From NCBI GenBank assembly GCA_033286805.1, contig GCA_033286805.1_4727.1: DNA of 64,000 nt, one strand, 5' to 3'. The notes below the pieces were generated by a model that was not told the origin of the DNA, made no database searches, and saw only the letters and a list, made by a program, of their open reading frames with translations. The translations under genes and the position numbers were made by a program. Below, in pieces: positions 7,009 to 14,230 of this stretch. The DNA is from a phage. How positions within the stretch are numbered: position 1 is the first letter of the stretch; each line of letters begins with the position of its first letter.

Positions 7009-8232
7009 TTATTTGGCGTCGTTAAAATAAATATCAACAGCTCGTTCCGTTGCGTAGAGGAGACCAAGATTCACAGTCCCAACCACTTCCGGTGAACCGA
7101 TGATACGGTTAGCGATACTGGTGCCACTGAAGATAGCATCAAGGGTGTGCCCGTCTTCGGTTTTGTTCACACCATGACCCACGGAAGAGACAACGGATTT
7201 CGCTTGAGCTGCGAAGGTACCTTTATCGCCCATCCCCGCACCAAGGTCGTAACGCATGAAAATACGGATGGCGATCTGGTTCTCGCCTAACGGATTACCG
7301 TCTATTCTCACGTTACTATTATTGATACGCCCCGTAGTTGCTTCGTTGAGTTTCAGTTCCTTAACGCGTTTAGCTCGTGCTTTATCCGCTTCACCGACGA
7401 GCGCCGCCATGGTTTCACTCATATCCTCAATCTGAGCGCGGTACAGTACATCGATCTGTACAACTTCACCATGAACGTCAGCACGTGGGTTATACTGACT
7501 CATACGACGTAATGCTTCAACGGCTTCCTGACTCTCATCACTCAGATCGGTCGCAATCGGTTCTTCCAGTGTTGCAAGGATCGTTCGTGGTTCAACATGA
7601 TCGCCGATTTTCACGAGACCACGAATGTTGAGATGAGCGTCAACAATGAGCGTACGGCTCTTAATCGATGGTGTTACGAGACGATCGGCAAGATTGTCGA
7701 AGATATACGAACTGTCCTCGTGAGTCTCTGGAATATCCAGAATACCGACAAGAGACAGAACACCTGCGCGCCAAACAACCTGACCTGGGTTCCACCAATC
7801 GCGTTTAAAATAAAGACGATGGAAGACCACCACATCCTGATCCTTAACGCGATCCCCGACTTTATAATCGGTAATGAGATCGTGAGGATAATACTTACCT
7901 GGTCCTTTCCCGATTATCGTACCGAGCTGGAAAACCTCTTCCCCTAACTCTGGATCGTCGTATTGTATCGTCAGCGCAGTTTTGGTGACCTTCTTAACAA
8001 CACCGTCACCTTGGGCGGCAGCTGCAAAGAGTTTACCAACACGATGCGCGATGACAGTCTCGCCACCCGTACGCCATGGTTGTACATCGTAACCTTCAGC
8101 AGCAATCATGCGGTTGTGCTGTATACCTATAAATACGAGACGCTTTGGCGAAATCCAGCAAAATACATTTACTGTGCGTCTGGATTGTTCAGATAAGGTC
8201 GTTAATCTTATCCCGGAGGCGATGACAGGCAC
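7009..8232 (-). CDS. Multisubunit RNA polymerase beta-like segment (middle region; probable downstream exon of a split beta gene)
   Basis: IQHNRMIAAEG...VQPW...RTGGETVIAHRVG resembles the bacterial beta HDDANRALMGANMQRQAVP...VGTGME region; MGDKGT...GHGVNK resembles GDKxxGRHGNKG; ORF opens only 3 codons upstream of a GTG. Confidence 0.6.
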   Translation of the reverse strand: MPVIASGIRLTTLSEQSRRTVNVFCWISPKRLVFIGIQHNRMIAAEGYDVQPWRTGGETVIAHRVGKLFAAAAQGDGVVKKVTKTALTIQYDDPELGEEVFQLGTIIGKGPGKYYPHDLITDYKVGDRVKDQDVVVFHRLYFKRDWWNPGQVVWRAGVLSLVGILDIPETHEDSSYIFDNLADRLVTPSIKSRTLIVDAHLNIRGLVKIGDHVEPRTILATLEEPIATDLSDESQEAVEALRRMSQYNPRADVHGEVVQIDVLYRAQIEDMSETMAALVGEADKARAKRVKELKLNEATTGRINNSNVRIDGNPLGENQIAIRIFMRYDLGAGMGDKGTFAAQAKSVVSSVGHGVNKTEDGHTLDAIFSGTSIANRIIGSPEVVGTVNLGLLYATERAVDIYFNDAK

Positions 8233-8609
8233 ACCGCCTCCCGCTTACGTTCTCACGCAAGAGCAGACTATATCACATCTCGTTTCAAACGGTGCTTCTT
8301 CAGCACCTCAACGAGAGTTCACTTCTTCCCAGCGCATCCAGCGCCATTCTCTTATCCAAGGAGAATGCCTCACTCGAGGGGTACCGGGGGATGAATCCCT
8401 TAGTCGTTGAACCTTTACCTTAGAACGCTTCACAGCGATCCTTAGGTACTTGGCTGCGGATTGTCCTTAAGCTATTATCTGTTTTTATAACCATACCGTC
8501 TTTCTTTTCAGAATCCGTTTTGGTCGATAACAGCGATGGATGTCTTCGCAATTCAGTGAATCTCATCTACATGTCGCCACATAGACGGACCCTGCTATTA
8601 AAAGCGTTA
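8231..8609 (-). ncRNA. Group I intron (ORF-less), approximate boundaries
   Basis: Minus-strand reading gives P-like GAAUUGCGAAG (about 8543-8556), Q AAUCCGCAGCCAAGUACCUAAGG (about 8447-8466), R GGUUCAACGACUAAGGG (8394-8414), S GAUAUAGUCUGC (8267-8276), in canonical order with GACUA/UAGUC P7 pairing; stop codon immediately at the putative 5' splice site. Confidence 0.75.
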
Positions 8610-11600
8610 ATCATCTCTGTCGGCAGCAGGTACTGCAAGTGCCGATGTACTCATTATTGACGAGCTACCATCCGTTTTCTCGTCGTAGGGTTTCGTTTCA
8701 CCGTATACAGACACAATGTTTGCGTTAGGTGCGAGGTAAGCAGAAATACCTACGTCCCCACTATCCTTCGTACCTTCGGATACAACACCAATGTCCGACT
8801 TGTCGTATTCACGATCGCGTGCGCGTCGAAGCGATGTCTTTGAACGACCCCCGATACCGGTCATCGTTGCTTCTTCACCCTGCTTGATATCCAACATCGG
8901 GTTGGTTTCATCGATCACGATGGAAGCGCTGTCGTCGAGAATTTGGTTCCAGACGCTTACCGGACTGATTGAGATTTTCTGGCGATTTCCTTGACTGCTG
9001 TTCTCATTCTGACGAATAGCGCCAACCAGATCCTTATACACCAATTCAGCGAACTTATCGTACGTTTTAAAACGTTGGTAGTTCACATCGTTGGTGTTAG
9101 GTGCCCAGTCATCCAGAAGCAGTTCAACAGCACGCAGTAACAACATGGCGAAATCGGTAGGTTCTCCCATGTTCTGTAGCAACGTACGGCTTACCGGATC
9201 AACGAAAAGACGCTCCATGAGTTCAAGTTCGCGTAAATGACGAACCTTAAGTCCAGCACCATCGACAACGTTAAAATAGATATCTCGATTGTCAAAAGCG
9301 CCGCGAGCGTAACCAATGTAGTTACGGTACTCGTTAAACCCACCCAGCAACAACGTCGTCATGCGATCGTCTTTACTGAAAATCAAACTTTCGTCGTCAA
9401 AGCTCACCGCGAATTCATCGGGTGCTAAACCCATACGAGAACCGCGAGGTACCGTACGATAGTTTGCTTTAAGATGTTCTAATAACGGGGTAAGTCCACC
9501 CAGATAACTTAGAACAACACCGACCGGAATACGTACACCCATGAATTCAAGATCGGCAGCTTCGATCGGCATCTTAGCCGCATTGATACCGAAGAAATCG
9601 GGGAACGTCCCTACAGGTGTTGGTGTTTGTCCTGACTGACAGATATAGAGCTGATTGCGTTTATCGATTGCTAAGAATTCACCCAGCGTGTTACGCGCAA
9701 ACGTCAGGAGCCCTTCGGCTAACTGTTCGTTGAACCGATCTTCCCCGATGAACTCCGGCAATGTTTTTATATCGAGACGTATATCCCAATCAGCAAATTG
9801 GATTTGGGTATAGTTGCGTGCAAGCACAGCGAAGTAATACGGGACTTTGACGGCCGGATCAAAGACGTTACCACGTTTTAACGTGGTTAAGGGTGAGGAC
9901 TTATCGTAATACATCGCCGTAAGTTGACGTGTTAGCCAACGACCGGCGTTATTAACGACGCGCTCTGAACGTTTAACAAACACCTTACCGTAGGCGGTAC
10001 TCAACGCAACTTCGGATGACGACACCTTTCTGATAGGTTTATCGACGCGTTGTTTACGCATCCGGTACTTGATGCCGTTAACGACATAAATGCCATCCTT
10101 ACGAACCTTCGGCAACATCACCGGGAACGTGGTTGGGACACCGCCTACAGGAGCCAGTTTAATCGTGATGACTTGATAATCCCCCATCACGTCAACAACG
10201 TCTTCGACTTTATAACCCGTAACAGGGTAACCTGCTTGCTGCACCGCAACAACGGCAGCTGCGATGTCCTTTTGCATCACGTGTTCAACGTAATGTTTAT
10301 CCCACACCGCAAGCGTCGATTTACATAGGCTCTTATCGACGATAACATCCGCTTCCGGCATAACCTTTGCTGGCGCTAATTTCGCGGCTTTTGGTTTAAC
10401 TTCAACATACTCAGCAAGTGTTAATCCAGAACCGTCGGGTGCTTCGATTTCGTGGATAGCGTCAGCATTACGCATCGCTGCTTTATATTGAACGCCGCTT
10501 AACTGACCCGCATCCGCCAGATCGCTCGCGCGCACCAACACCGCATCTGATAACGACTGAATATATTCACCGTGCGTTTTTGGTAACGTTGCCGCGTCAA
10601 AGACATCAACCTTTTCTTCTTCGGTATTGTCGGTAACGACTTCGAAGAGATCGTCAGTAATGTCCTGATCTTCATCGGGTTGGAAATCTGGTTGTACTTC
10701 TACCCCGGGTACTTCACGGACATCTTCGAACGAGCGTTCTACAATGGCGTTCCACGCATCAGCGTCATCGTCTTCATCCGACCCACCAACCAACTCCGCT
10801 TCTAACTCATCGGGATCAAGAACAGTGGCCAGATCCTCACCGTTAGGAAGCACGACGTCGCGATCATCGTACTCCGCATCCGGGCTGTCCGCAAGAATAT
10901 CTCGCTCTTGACGAAGAACCTGTTCCTCTTCTTGTTTCTGTTCTTCTTCATTCGCGCTCTGCGACCACAGACGTGTTACCGCCATCATCCAACGACGCTG
11001 GAAGGTTTCAAGTGTCGTTTTATCGAGTTCTTCCCCTTCCTTAACAAGCCCGGTACGCCATTCCTCCAGTAGACCAAGATTCAACGTAAAGAAGTACACA
11101 CCGTCTGTAAATACAACGTTAAGCTTATCCAGTGTGGCTCTGTCTAACGAAGCCATCGTGCTGTTCTCACGATCGGTTCCCAACCAGCGGAAGAAGTCAA
11201 AGAACGATAGCTCCTCCGGCGTGGCGAAATTCATGAGGTTGTTACGGGTCGGTGCCTGTTGCGTGGTACGCATCAACGAAATCTTCGGCAATGTTGACGG
11301 TATACGGAACAACAGAAAGTGTTGACGATCGCTTTGCTGTGCGATTTCGTTGGCTTTCGACCAAATTGTTTTACGCACGTTGAACCATTCATCATACCAA
11401 CGGGTGAGCGTTGGACGATAAATGTACATGTGGTTAAGATGCGCGTAGTTAGCAACGATCTGAGCGTTGATGTTTTTCTCCACCGCGCTCAGATCGGTAA
11501 CCAAACGAAAACGACGATGTGACGCACGATAATCCAATTTCGCTCGTGGGAGTTGGAATCGTTGATCACGTCGAGGTGCGCCCTGTTTGGTTGCGAGATC

Positions 11601-11816
11601 ATCAGCAAACGAAATCCATAGTTGAGCACTTTCTTTACTCAGCATGTATTCGTTTTCTGGAGGACCTATCAATGAAGGATCCGTTGCGGTGTAATGATAG
11701 ACAGCATAACGCGGCAGCTGCAATAGCTGCACTAAACGTAATCTTGGTGATAGTAGCTCTTGGTAGCGTCTGACACCAAACTGTCGGTAGTAATCAAGGT
11801 ATTTAAGTTTTGCCAT
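8607..11816 (-). CDS. Multisubunit RNA polymerase beta-like subunit, N-terminal portion (1069 aa)
   Basis: C-terminal TGIGGRSKTSLRRARDREYD...GVVSEGTKDSGDVGISAYLA matches the bacterial beta GPGGLTRERAGFEVRDVH...[20 protein letters not shown] region; GGAG RBS before the ATG. Confidence 0.65.
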   Translation of the reverse strand: MAKLKYLDYYRQFGVRRYQELLSPRLRLVQLLQLPRYAVYHYTATDPSLIGPPENEYMLSKESAQLWISFADDLATKQGAPRRDQRFQLPRAKLDYRASHRRFRLVTDLSAVEKNINAQIVANYAHLNHMYIYRPTLTRWYDEWFNVRKTIWSKANEIAQQSDRQHFLLFRIPSTLPKISLMRTTQQAPTRNNLMNFATPEELSFFDFFRWLGTDRENSTMASLDRATLDKLNVVFTDGVYFFTLNLGLLEEWRTGLVKEGEELDKTTLETFQRRWMMAVTRLWSQSANEEEQKQEEEQVLRQERDILADSPDAEYDDRDVVLPNGEDLATVLDPDELEAELVGGSDEDDDADAWNAIVERSFEDVREVPGVEVQPDFQPDEDQDITDDLFEVVTDNTEEEKVDVFDAATLPKTHGEYIQSLSDAVLVRASDLADAGQLSGVQYKAAMRNADAIHEIEAPDGSGLTLAEYVEVKPKAAKLAPAKVMPEADVIVDKSLCKSTLAVWDKHYVEHVMQKDIAAAVVAVQQAGYPVTGYKVEDVVDVMGDYQVITIKLAPVGGVPTTFPVMLPKVRKDGIYVVNGIKYRMRKQRVDKPIRKVSSSEVALSTAYGKVFVKRSERVVNNAGRWLTRQLTAMYYDKSSPLTTLKRGNVFDPAVKVPYYFAVLARNYTQIQFADWDIRLDIKTLPEFIGEDRFNEQLAEGLLTFARNTLGEFLAIDKRNQLYICQSGQTPTPVGTFPDFFGINAAKMPIEAADLEFMGVRIPVGVVLSYLGGLTPLLEHLKANYRTVPRGSRMGLAPDEFAVSFDDESLIFSKDDRMTTLLLGGFNEYRNYIGYARGAFDNRDIYFNVVDGAGLKVRHLRELELMERLFVDPVSRTLLQNMGEPTDFAMLLLRAVELLLDDWAPNTNDVNYQRFKTYDKFAELVYKDLVGAIRQNENSSQGNRQKISISPVSVWNQILDDSASIVIDETNPMLDIKQGEEATMTGIGGRSKTSLRRARDREYDKSDIGVVSEGTKDSGDVGISAYLAPNANIVSVYGETKPYDEKTDGSSSIMSTSALAVPAADRDD

Positions 11817-12494
11817 GGGTTAGGCTCCACGAGGTCCCGTTAAGTTGCGTAATAGGAACGCAACCGTATCGTAACCAATATCGATGTTGAATTTATTTTT
11901 ACCACTTACCCAGAAAGCTCGCTTCTTGTGCGAGTTGGTAATTTCGTCAATAGCTTCCATGGAATAAAGAACGTTAACCGAGACCGTATCACCGTCGAAC
12001 CTTGTCTTCGCCTCAGTTCGCTACGCTGAGACCGCCTGCATGGATACGTACATCACAGGCTGCTTGCACTTTCATGCAAGAGGAGACTATATCAAACCGG
12101 CAGCACAACCTGCTACGGTAACCTACACTTCGAAGACGCTTGTCCTCTACAGGGTGGTAAATCCCTTAGTCGTTGAACCTGCGTTGTTTCACATTCTTGC
12201 AAACAAGAATGCCGTATTACTACGCAACAACCAGGCTGCTGATCGCCCATTGTTTCGCACCTTAGCACCGCTTACGCGGCTTTTCTTTCAGCCTAAGCCT
12301 CTTACGGAGGTAGTGCATCTCAACTGTTGTTTCTGCCTTTCGGCACCTCATGGGTCGTTGAGCTTTAGGGGTTCCCAGCAATTCGTAGGTTTTTCAAGCA
12401 CTCTCTTTCGAGAATACCGGACCAATTCAGTTAGTAAACAACATTATTACCATCCCCCATTCTCAAGGGTTAATTTTTTAAAATGATAGAATTA
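11814..12494 (-). ncRNA. Group I intron (ORF-less, about 680 nt), approximate boundaries
   Basis: Minus-strand P-like AAUUGCUGGGAACC (about 12370-12386), Q AUCAGCAGCC (about 12231-12250), R GGUUCAACGACUAAGGG (12160-12180, identical 21-mer to the other intron), S GAUAUAGUCUC (12085-12094). Confidence 0.7.
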
Positions 12495-13985
12495 ATGTGT
12501 TTTTGGGCTAACTCGAAGATCACCGCCTAAACCGGCGAGGTATGGCGCAGGGACAATAGTAGTTTCTACGAACGAAGCATTAGGTAACCAGTCGGGGTAT
12601 TCCCACGCAATAAATCGCTCGTCCGTTATTGGTTCCCAGTTGCTATCCAATTCGGTTTTCGGTTTTGCAGCGACGGTTGTACGCGCGTAACAGGTTAACG
12701 GAATGACGGATTGCATACCCGATACCGGATAACGTGTTACCATCGCTGCCAGGTTATTCCAGTACTTATATCCGGCAATATAGATAAGCTCGGTGTACGT
12801 GATGGGGTGAACATCCGCGCCGGGTTTATTCAACATCTCTGGGGGTAATTCACTCATACCACGGAACAGTCGAAACGAATCATTGTTCACATAGACAAGA
12901 CAAAGATATCGTCCATTAACCATGATAGGTTCGTTACGCACACCAGGATCGCTTAAGGTGTTCAGTAAACGTTCTATTCCGTCCCATGTTGTAAAGTCAT
13001 CGATGGTGTCTGGATCAAGAGTGACACGTTCACGTTCCATCGTTTCGGTATCGATAAGTTCAACTTCTGTAACATCACGGACAAATATTTCCTGCAAAAT
13101 CCCCGTACGTAACGCGTGTTGTGTTACAGGGAGAGCAGCTTTACTCATCTGGTATAACCCTAACTGAACTGCGGTACAGGAAGGCTGGTTAGGCGACCCT
13201 AGTACCTCCGTTGTGGGGTTAATTGCCGAAATAACGTTACGGGTTGAGTTCCAAACACGACGTGAGCCGAACTTCCCTTGGAAGATCCCTTTCTTACCTT
13301 GGAACATATCCAACAGTAAAGCGTAGATATCGTTGAATGTTCTCTGTAAGCTCCAGCGCTGGCCGTCGTAAACGGGATCGGAATAATCTTTTAATCCATC
13401 AGGGACGGTGTTAGAAATTGCAAGGAAACGACGATACAACTCCGTGATTTCTTGCTCGCTTTCATACCCACCTTCTTTTACTTCTATTTCACGTAAGCCC
13501 GCAGGCAATACCAGTAAGTGACGAGTCATCGCTTTGAACATGTTCTCTTCGACGACTTTAATTCGTAGCTCTCGTTGAGCTGAACCCGTTGAAACGAACT
13601 TGATATCCGCGACGTGTTGTGCAAAGAACCCATATCCTGTTTGTCCTGTTAGCGCATCGGACGCAACGAAGTCGCGTTGTTCAGGATCCCACCGAGCGTA
13701 CGCCTTCCCCGACATGATATCACCATAGAGGTGTTTTAGTCGAATGAGGCGGTCGTAAATGACAGGATGCAGGATTTCAACCTTGCATTCAATCACCGCA
13801 AATCGACGGTCTCGATCTTCACTACCCGCACTACCAAAGATGGTGTAAGAATAGAAACCGTCATCGTGGAAATTACCGGTGCTTGGGTCACGGATGCTCA
13901 TGCTCGTGATCTTGGGAAGAAAACGTAACTGCTGTTTATCGAGGTGTAAAATGCTAATGTTAAACGGCTCTCTGACTTTAGCCAT
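12492..13985 (-). CDS. Multisubunit RNA polymerase beta'-like subunit, N-terminal fragment
   Basis: DGFYSYTIFGS ~ beta' DGLFCARIFGP; FAVIECKVEILHPVIY ~ MGHIELASPTAHIWF; LLVLPAGLRE...ELYRRF ~ VLPPDLRP...LYRRV; GKKGIFQGKFGSRRVWNSTRNVIS ~ [23 protein letters not shown]. Start placed at the ATG at 13985 with AAGAGGAG RBS; ORF track extends to 14027. Confidence 0.7.
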   Translation of the reverse strand: MAKVREPFNISILHLDKQQLRFLPKITSMSIRDPSTGNFHDDGFYSYTIFGSAGSEDRDRRFAVIECKVEILHPVIYDRLIRLKHLYGDIMSGKAYARWDPEQRDFVASDALTGQTGYGFFAQHVADIKFVSTGSAQRELRIKVVEENMFKAMTRHLLVLPAGLREIEVKEGGYESEQEITELYRRFLAISNTVPDGLKDYSDPVYDGQRWSLQRTFNDIYALLLDMFQGKKGIFQGKFGSRRVWNSTRNVISAINPTTEVLGSPNQPSCTAVQLGLYQMSKAALPVTQHALRTGILQEIFVRDVTEVELIDTETMERERVTLDPDTIDDFTTWDGIERLLNTLSDPGVRNEPIMVNGRYLCLVYVNNDSFRLFRGMSELPPEMLNKPGADVHPITYTELIYIAGYKYWNNLAAMVTRYPVSGMQSVIPLTCYARTTVAAKPKTELDSNWEPITDERFIAWEYPDWLPNASFVETTIVPAPYLAGLGGDLRVSPKTH

Positions 13986-14230
13986 GGAGACACTCCTCTT
14001 TACCACCACCGGCTGCGGCGGTATCATCTGAACACACGAGAGACGTAATGGGTGATGGCGTCACCCATCGCTTCCTTGCTTGAGGCGAGGAAGTTATTAG
14101 GTTACGTACCTGCCTGATTTTATCAGGTGGGCGATGTGTGAAGTTACGCTTCAACATTATCAATGCCGAAGGTAAACTTCGTGCATCACGTTCCAACGTA
14201 ACATGGGAACGTATCGAACTGGAGGTATAC

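Follow-up and report, generated by a model that had tools for sequence, protein, structure and literature searches.

The closest described counterpart of the element reported here resides in phage PhiPA3, in which a putative group I intron bearing the HNH nicking endonuclease gp210 interrupts gp211/209, the gene for the beta subunit of the virion RNA polymerase (vRNAP) (Birkholz 2024, Science, PMC11620839). The homologous protein of phiKZ, gp178, is the beta subunit of that phage's vRNAP, an enzyme required for early transcription in phiKZ-like phages (PMC11620839). The present analysis concerns a 64,000-nucleotide (nt) stretch of phage DNA (GenBank assembly GCA_033286805.1, contig GCA_033286805.1_4727.1; hereafter the window), which in the region of interest is approximately 96% identical to the Escherichia coli jumbo phage vB_EcoM_Goslar, and within it a 461-nt element on the minus strand (8149..8609) that splits a vRNAP beta-like gene. 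Comparative evidence indicates that this element is very probably a functional, td-like, self-splicing group I intron without an endonuclease open reading frame (ORF), situated in the beta-like gene of a Goslar-like nucleus-forming jumbo phage.

The window intron resembles the gp210 intron in its host gene (the phiKZ gp178 homologue), in its insertion point after the second conserved Asp, and in having a td-like ribozyme with a P9.2 'UAACGA' loop and a CUGAA tail. It differs in that the PhiPA3 intron is 1352 nt long and carries an ORF, whilst the window copy has 461 nt and no ORF; the large P5, P7.2 and P9.1-9.3 extensions of the window intron are missing from that of PhiPA3, and PhiPA3 infects Pseudomonas, whereas the window phage belongs with the E. 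coli phages related to Goslar. Competition by means of a nuclease, as described for PhiPA3 gp210, is impossible for the window copy itself. Occupancy of the beta-gene site has been published for PhiPA3 (2024, PMC11620839), and group I introns located at catalytic motifs of essential phage genes, whether or not they carry a homing endonuclease, are a well-established kind. Nothing here alters what is known of group I introns as such; only the allelic series among E. coli phages and a segment identical to the td intron exceed the expected.

Detection and boundaries of the intron

An Rfam scan returned a match to RF00028 on the minus strand at 8611..8244, scoring 55.3 bits against a gathering threshold of 50 (E 2.7e-11) and spanning the full model (positions 1-253) without truncation. 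A group I intron on the coding strand between the two beta-like ORFs had been proposed in a sequence-only reading of this DNA, and the match bears this out; the P, Q, R and S elements named there (GAAUUGCGAAG, AAUCCGCAGCCAAGUACCUAAGG, GGUUCAACGACUAAGGG and GAUAUAGUCUGC) are all present in the order given, and the GACUA/UAGUC pairing proposed as P7 is likewise present and invariant in relatives. The limits of the intron (8149..8609, minus strand, 461 nt) were drawn from an intron-less Goslar allele and the junctions of related introns, whilst covariation and minimum free energy (MFE) folding bear on its structure.

The boundaries could be fixed because uninterrupted gp207 of Goslar, annotated as "RNA polymerase beta subunit" (1448 amino acids [aa]; a phiKZ gp178 homologue) and encoded by one continuous coding sequence (CDS), provides a natural intron-less allele. 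At the empty insertion site the Goslar sequence is …GTAGACCGTGACGATGGAAAACGTCTGG…, and its protein reads ...AVPAVDRDD-G-KRLVFVGIQHNRM (DRDD-G-KRLVFVGIQHN), whereas the window reads ...AVPAADRDD, followed by a stop codon, the 461 nt and then PKRLVFIGIQHNRM. The 5' exon (8610..11816, minus strand, ATG at 11816) was taken from the ORF list and is colinear with Goslar gp207; it terminates GAC AGA GAU GAU (…AADRDD), with U8610 as the last exon base. This 5' splice site, after GAU|UAA, had been named in the sequence-only reading and agrees with both the Goslar alignment and a predicted P1 hairpin. The intron itself begins UAACGC... and ends ...GGAUUUCG (...UUUCG), the terminal omega-G being G8149. 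The 3' exon (7009..8148, minus strand) opens at 8148 with CCA AAG CGU (PKR) and runs from PKRLVFIGIQHNRM... to the stop codon, homology to Goslar gp207 resuming exactly at its start; the N-terminus of protein P0001 from a related Logan contig (L003, see below) is the identical MLPKREMFVGIQHN.

The predicted ligated RNA has the junction GAUGAU|CCAAAGCGU (GAU GAU|CCA AAG in codons), giving the protein junction ...AADRDD|PKRLVFIGIQHN and the junction-spanning peptide ...AADRDDPKRLVF... The ligated CDS is 4347 nt, equal to that of Goslar gp207, with zero indels and 95.5% identity, and its product has 1448 aa; the gene model of the beta-like subunit would accordingly need correction to one spliced protein of this length. 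The spliced protein gave a single continuous match to PHROG 3148 ("RNA polymerase beta subunit"; positions 2-1420 of 1424) and is 41% identical to phiKZ gp178 across the junction. These alignments, together with that to Goslar gp207, agree with the earlier proposal that the intron is ORF-less and that its removal restores an in-frame beta-like protein. A Pfam search with this protein and the spliced beta'-like protein described below gave zero matches, both being too divergent, and a sequence search of the PDB with the beta-like protein gave nothing meaningful; its identity as a beta subunit is therefore drawn from PHROGs, homology to phiKZ gp178 and the published RpoB alignment (PMC11620839).

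By alignment, the insertion lies within the beta EHDD-ANR motif (the EHDD-ANR region of E. coli RpoB), an active-site-proximal position. The junction is NDD|MKRVGFISIQQQ in PhiPA3, and the intron-less phiKZ gene reads EHDD-PKRINFISIQQQ; DRDD|PKR of the window aligns with NDD|MKR and EHDD-PKR respectively, so that the site is the same in all three. An earlier placement of the intron upstream of an HDDANR-like region was incorrect, since DRDD is itself the motif and the intron sits inside it. When IMG/VR homologues were fetched with a junction-spanning profile, 77 of 80 were uninterrupted, and occupancy of the beta DD| site is therefore rare.

The position of the 3' splice site also required revision. 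The sequence-only reading had described an intron of about 375 nt, with its 3' boundary and the start of the downstream exon near the GTG at 8232; the site supported here (8149|8148) lies 84 nt further downstream, and the 28 in-frame codons following the GTG are intron RNA (P9.1-P9.3). A boundary near this GTG was rejected on the grounds that the codons of 8232-8149 have no Goslar counterpart and that L011 and L012, the two closest relatives (introduced below), lack both this GTG and any in-frame start codon in the open stretch upstream of the 3' splice site. Two other candidates were also rejected: a td-analogous site after AUCCAG (8180|8179) would put the 3' exon out of frame, at the cost of the conserved KRLVFIGIQHN, whilst a site after UGG (8155|8154) adds two residues seen in no homologue and leaves an A+1 that cannot pair with the guide. 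Unlike these alternatives, the other occupied alleles all resume at xKR.

Neither an HNH ORF nor any other family-matching ORF was found on either strand of 8149-8609. As no HNH ORF is encoded within it, the window copy is not an autonomous mobile intron, but an ORF-less derivative or relative of one. A plus-strand ORF of 100 aa (8108-8410) runs antisense to the core of the intron and the first part of the 3' exon and is likewise open in L012; it had no Pfam match, and conservation of the RNA sequence is the most likely reason for its existence.

Same-site introns in related phages

Five further introns were found at this site, each scoring above the RF00028 gathering threshold over the full-length model. 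L011 and L012 are IMG/VR genomes, both 96-97% identical to the window and both with the junction DRDD|PKRLVF; the former carries a 461-nt ORF-less intron nearly identical to that of the window, the latter an intron with an HNH ORF. In L012 the 3' 330 nt of the intron are as in the window, with the addition of a 403-aa HNH/NUMOD1 ORF located in the P1 loop and extending as far as P6. The Logan contig L003 (approximately 66% aa identity) has a 1487-nt intron with a 373-aa HNH_3 ORF and the junction DD|PKREMF. The remaining two are the 1352-nt intron of PhiPA3 (NDD|MKR) and that of Pseudomonas phage HPP-Temi (PP968062; 1963-2310, NDD|PKRINF). The latter is, like the window intron, an ORF-less group I intron at the identical site (Rfam 70.5 bits), but at 348 nt it is closer to the PhiPA3 core and is without the P7.2 and P9.3 extensions.

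A DD|PKR junction is common to L003, L011, L012 and HPP-Temi, and all six occupied alleles, including that of the window, have U and G immediately preceding the 5' and 3' splice sites respectively and resume at xKR; the omega-G column is an invariant G in the alignment of the six introns (alignment A2). The HNH proteins of L012, L003 and PhiPA3 (gp210) are full-length homologues with 35-36% identity (E 1e-55 to 1e-61). The HPP-Temi intron is unannotated, the record containing two 'RNA polymerase beta subunit' CDSs and a small intronic hypothetical ORF.

Predicted fold, covariation and splicing

The 461-nt element folds with an MFE z-score of -5.29, and none of 100 shuffled sequences was equally stable. 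All helix coordinates below are on the minus strand. In P1 (8588..8612; RNAfold of the local region), exon bases G8612-A8611-U8610 and intron base U8609 pair with the guide G8591-G8590-U8589-C8588, placing a U·G wobble at the splice site, and a short inner stem GCU/AGC follows. The guide GUC just 5' of P2 is invariant in the six same-site introns (A2 columns G7 T8 C9), and on the intron side of P1 a reading by eye identified compensatory changes between PhiPA3 (GAU|UGU / ACAGUC) and HPP-Temi (GAU|UGA / UUGGUC).

The catalytic core (8266..8584), which includes the P3/P7 pseudoknot, comprises P2 (8584-8567), P3 (8562-8556 with 8322-8315), P4 (8550-8545 with 8460-8455), P5 (8540-8536 with 8468-8464), P6/6a/6b (8454-8411), P7 (8405-8401 with 8270-8266), P7.1/P7.2 (8399-8329; P7.1 8399-8388 and a multi-stem P7.2 at 8387-8329) and P8/8a (8314-8280). 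It is followed by a 3' peripheral domain (8153..8261) which consists of P9 (8261-8244, GAGA loop), P9.1 (8241-8215), P9.2 (8212-8192) and P9.3 (8185-8153) and includes the non-conserved in-frame GTG at 8232. P7.1, P7.2, P9.1 and P9.2 were also recovered by unconstrained MFE folding. On these features the intron may be described as td-like and of subgroup IA type, P7.1/P7.2 and P9.1/P9.2 being features of subgroup IA (td-like) introns in the Michel-Westhof classification.

Helix coordinates refer to the window sequence, whilst the 106 pairs in 20 helices of the structure P2-P9.3 were counted on an alignment of the window, L011, L012 and L003 (alignment A3). A MAFFT alignment that included the Pseudomonas introns misaligned P3'/P8, and covariation was therefore assessed on these four enterobacterial sequences only. 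Standard pairs occupied 92.3% of the A3 cells, against 35-42% when the 3' partners were slid by 1-3 columns. Changes on both sides were present in 27 of the 106 pairs, as opposed to 1-6 in the slid controls and 10 ± 2.2 in shuffles, of which 0/500 reached 27. Between the window group and L003, covariation was seen in P2, P3, P4, P6a, P6b, P8 and P8a, and P9 and P9.1 showed compensatory changes among the window, L011 and L012; the invariant P7 strands carry no covariation information. The fold of P2-P9.3 is supported by this covariation and P1 is a predicted hairpin. Overall divergence between the window and L011 is some 3-4%, yet within the intron the differences fall mainly in P9 and P9.1 and are compensatory, an indication that selection for the fold is continuing.

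Under the proposed mechanism, the pre-mRNA would fold into the P1-P9.3 ribozyme, and an external guanosine held in P7 would attack after U8610, at the U·G wobble of P1 (GAU/GUC). The released 5' exon would then attack after omega-G 8149, ligating the exons as GAU GAU|CCA AAG, such that a single 1448-aa protein with the intact motif ...AADRDD-PKRLVFIGIQHN would be produced.

Several points weigh against this account. Guide pairing is weak, the exonic part of P1 amounting to only 3 base pairs (bp; GAU/GUC) and P10 to at most 2 bp (C+1 C+2 with G19 G18), and P4 and P5 of the window each contain one mismatch. The covariation sample consists of four sequences, three of them closely related, and splicing of 8609..8149 is something that we infer from sequence comparison. 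In addition, the P5 extension of the window intron (intron nt ~66-141) has no detectable similarity to that of L012, and a simple history of 'ORF deletion' is for this reason incomplete.

Short P1 and P10 pairings and the single mismatches in P4 and P5 would also be expected of a real intron that is impaired in splicing or dependent on a protein cofactor, decaying toward loss whilst a reduced polymerase output is tolerated. The endonuclease ORF is gone, and the homing-cycle model predicts degeneration after such a loss. We nonetheless regard this explanation as improbable: the differences from L011 are compensatory and confined largely to P9/P9.1, as expected under continuing selection for the fold, and the host gene encodes the virion polymerase that phiKZ-like phages need for early transcription (PMC11620839).

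A second alternative is that the element is a dead intron remnant and the gene is split without splicing, the beta-like subunit being made as two polypeptides, the second initiated at GTG 8232. This codon is in frame and has GGAGG upstream, and jumbo-phage RNA polymerases are already built from split beta/beta' fragments, beta'-N being a separate gene here. However, the GTG is not conserved, L011 and L012 having no in-frame start there, and the GGAGG, 2 nt from the GTG, belongs to the P9.1 stem, the evolution of which shows compensatory changes and not codon conservation. A break here would moreover interrupt the conserved DD-xKR motif, structural selection acts on the ribozyme core, which is intact, and the homologues are single ORFs in 77 of 80 cases. 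A split gene of this type is accordingly very improbable, and a spliced beta-like gene is the preferred reading.

It was also observed that intron nt 3-9 (ACGCUUU; 8601-8607) are complementary to positions +3..+9 of the 3' exon (AAAGCGU; 8140-8146), and that ACGCU upstream of the guide sequence is retained in L003 and L012. As an extended P10, this 7-base match was rejected as not significant, given that 17% of shuffled exons pair equally well; it is probably due to chance.

A segment shared with the T4 td intron

The td (thymidylate synthase) intron of phage T4 belongs to subgroup IA2. It shares with the window intron the P7.1/P7.2 and P9/P9.1/P9.2 architecture and identical P7 strands (AACGACUA / GAUAUAGUCUGCUCU), but occupies another host gene and insertion site, and its remaining sequence is not alignable with that of the window. 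Its ORF (I-TevI, of the GIY-YIG type) is located in P6, whereas the HNH ORF of the beta-site family is in the P1 loop, and the window intron has an additional 37-nt tail (P9.3) beyond P9.2.

A 32-nt stretch of the window intron, UCCGGGAUAAGAUUAACGACCUUAUCUGAACA (8186..8217, minus strand; intron nt 393-424), covers P9.2. With blastn, its counterpart at the 3' end of the td intron was retrieved from 226 T4-like records (95-100% identity; 99% or above in 40 of them), and the T-even records among the matches listed are all 100% identical to it. Outside this stretch the two introns align poorly. The P9.2 stems differ in other members of the beta-site family, and L012 departs from the window at two of the 32 positions. 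This distribution suggests recombination between a td-type intron and the window intron in a shared E. coli host.

The same identity to T-even td introns could in principle arise from an assembly error or chimera, in which the contig would have wrongly incorporated a td-like fragment of a co-occurring T4-like phage. Against this, the intron is present at the same position in three independent assemblies (the window, and L011 and L012 from IMG/VR) and the site is also occupied in L003, HPP-Temi and PhiPA3. The window and td introns are dissimilar except in the 32-mer and the generic P7 strand, and the exon frames are exactly restored. The probability of such an artefact is accordingly vanishingly small.

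Probable homing history and allelic states

Divergence of the flanking exons from Goslar delimits a putative co-conversion tract (8119..8760, minus strand, the intron itself excluded). Relative to Goslar, the mismatch amounts to 33% within ±30 nt of the junction and 18-30% over approximately 150 nt upstream, against a gene-wide background of 4.5%, and is 0% in the interval 30-90 nt downstream. The 60 nt surrounding the junction contain 20 mismatches (P = 7e-13) and constitute the densest 60-nt interval in the 4347-nt gene, with most of the changes near the junction being synonymous. On sequence comparison, a divergence peak so placed is the classical co-conversion signature of endonuclease-driven homing.

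An intron of the PhiPA3 gp210 HNH-intron family, inserted at the same site, would thus have entered the lineage by endonuclease-driven homing, leaving the co-conversion tract behind. The window intron may later have lost, or may never have gained, the HNH ORF that is still present in the P1 loop of its sister phage L012, and the occupied site would also destroy the endonuclease target.

A second group I intron interrupts the neighbouring beta'-like gene at a D|FDGD site, as described in the following section, and four Goslar-like genomes that are approximately 94-97% mutually identical (Goslar, L012, L011 and the window; loci L010, L011/L092 and L012/L090) differ in their introns at the two sites. 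Goslar has an intron with HNH at the beta' site, its beta site being empty; in the L012 phage the arrangement is reversed, with an empty beta' site and an intron with HNH at the beta site; and the L011 phage and the window each carry ORF-less introns at both. Judged by these sequences, every stage of the homing cycle is present at the beta site, namely empty (Goslar), intron with HNH (L012) and ORF-less (L011 and the window), the direction of the ORF change, whether loss or gain, being a matter that we infer. Such a series, in phages that are approximately 96% identical, would be usable for measurements of homing, co-conversion and immunity in a tractable host, and the present finding extends the PhiPA3 system of an intron endonuclease as a competitive weapon to E. 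coli phages.

Taken jointly, the beta DD| and beta' D|FDGD introns might represent a reciprocal weapon-and-shield system among Goslar-like phages, with the td segment as a trace of cross-phage exchange, a proposal that we offer tentatively and consider rather doubtful. If it were true, the window phage and L011, with both introns ORF-less, would be immune to both endonucleases whilst paying for neither, and during co-infection of E. coli nucleus-forming phages would exchange intron segments with cytoplasmic T4-like phages, the nuclear shell notwithstanding. Ribosome assistance in folding has been reported for the T4 td intron. In nucleus-forming phages transcription and translation are separated, such that a td-like intron would have to fold without help from the ribosome, and the window intron is a possible model for this.

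The neighbouring beta'-like gene and its intron

Upstream of the beta-like gene lies a gene for the N-terminal half of a beta'-like vRNAP subunit (11820..14027, minus strand), identified by PHROG 2986, AR9 beta' and PhiPA3 gp212. Exon 1 extends from 14027 (or from an ATG at 13985) to 12519 and exon 2, of 59 codons, from 11999 to 11820, coordinates that take in the stop codon. Between them is an ORF-less intron of 519 nt (12000..12518, minus strand), to which the second RF00028 match of the window corresponds (12447..12063, 56.5 bits); its limits, 12518..12000, are fixed by the natural intron-less allele of the L012 phage (L090, GLGGD-FDGDTVS) and by PhiPA3 gp212. The intron separates the first Asp of the catalytic DFDGD motif from the remainder (…LGGD|FDGDTVS…). 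Splicing as GGU GAU|...AGG|UUC GAC GGU GAU would give a 562-aa protein whose match to PHROG 2986 spans positions 3-538 of 539; this protein also matches the AR9 beta' chain 7S00_d, with the DYDGD motif included, and, end to end, the uninterrupted PhiPA3 gp212 with 39% identity.

The sequence-only reading had numbered the exons on either side of the beta-gene intron as 2 and 3, which implies a gene of three exons; the 511-aa ORF at 14027..12492 is not a first exon of beta and belongs instead to this separate gene with its own intron and second exon. A single three-exon beta gene was rejected because all three frames of 12062-11816 carry stops relative to the beta ATG. The beta'-like stop ends at 11820, 3 nt ahead of the beta ATG at 11816.

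The annotated 'Intron_gpI' of Goslar (NC_048170) is the orthologue of this second intron, located at D|FDGD in the beta'-like gene, and not of the beta-gene intron; it holds a 490-aa HNH ORF, gp206, whereas the orthologue in the window has none. The model of the beta'-like subunit needs an exon 2 with FDGD, the first Asp of DFDGD being the end of exon 1, and it is this exon that the Goslar RefSeq record omits. In the Goslar record (NC_048170 / MK327938, 6103-8041), gp205 is annotated up to the intron, leaving the beta' model short. A group I intron was also observed at the same position (NAD|FDGD) in the beta' gene of Vibrio phage vB_pir03 (MT811961, ~1431-2740; Rfam 54.7 bits), the pieces of which are annotated as separate CDSs; over P4'-P7 this intron is 78% similar to the beta-gene intron of the window.

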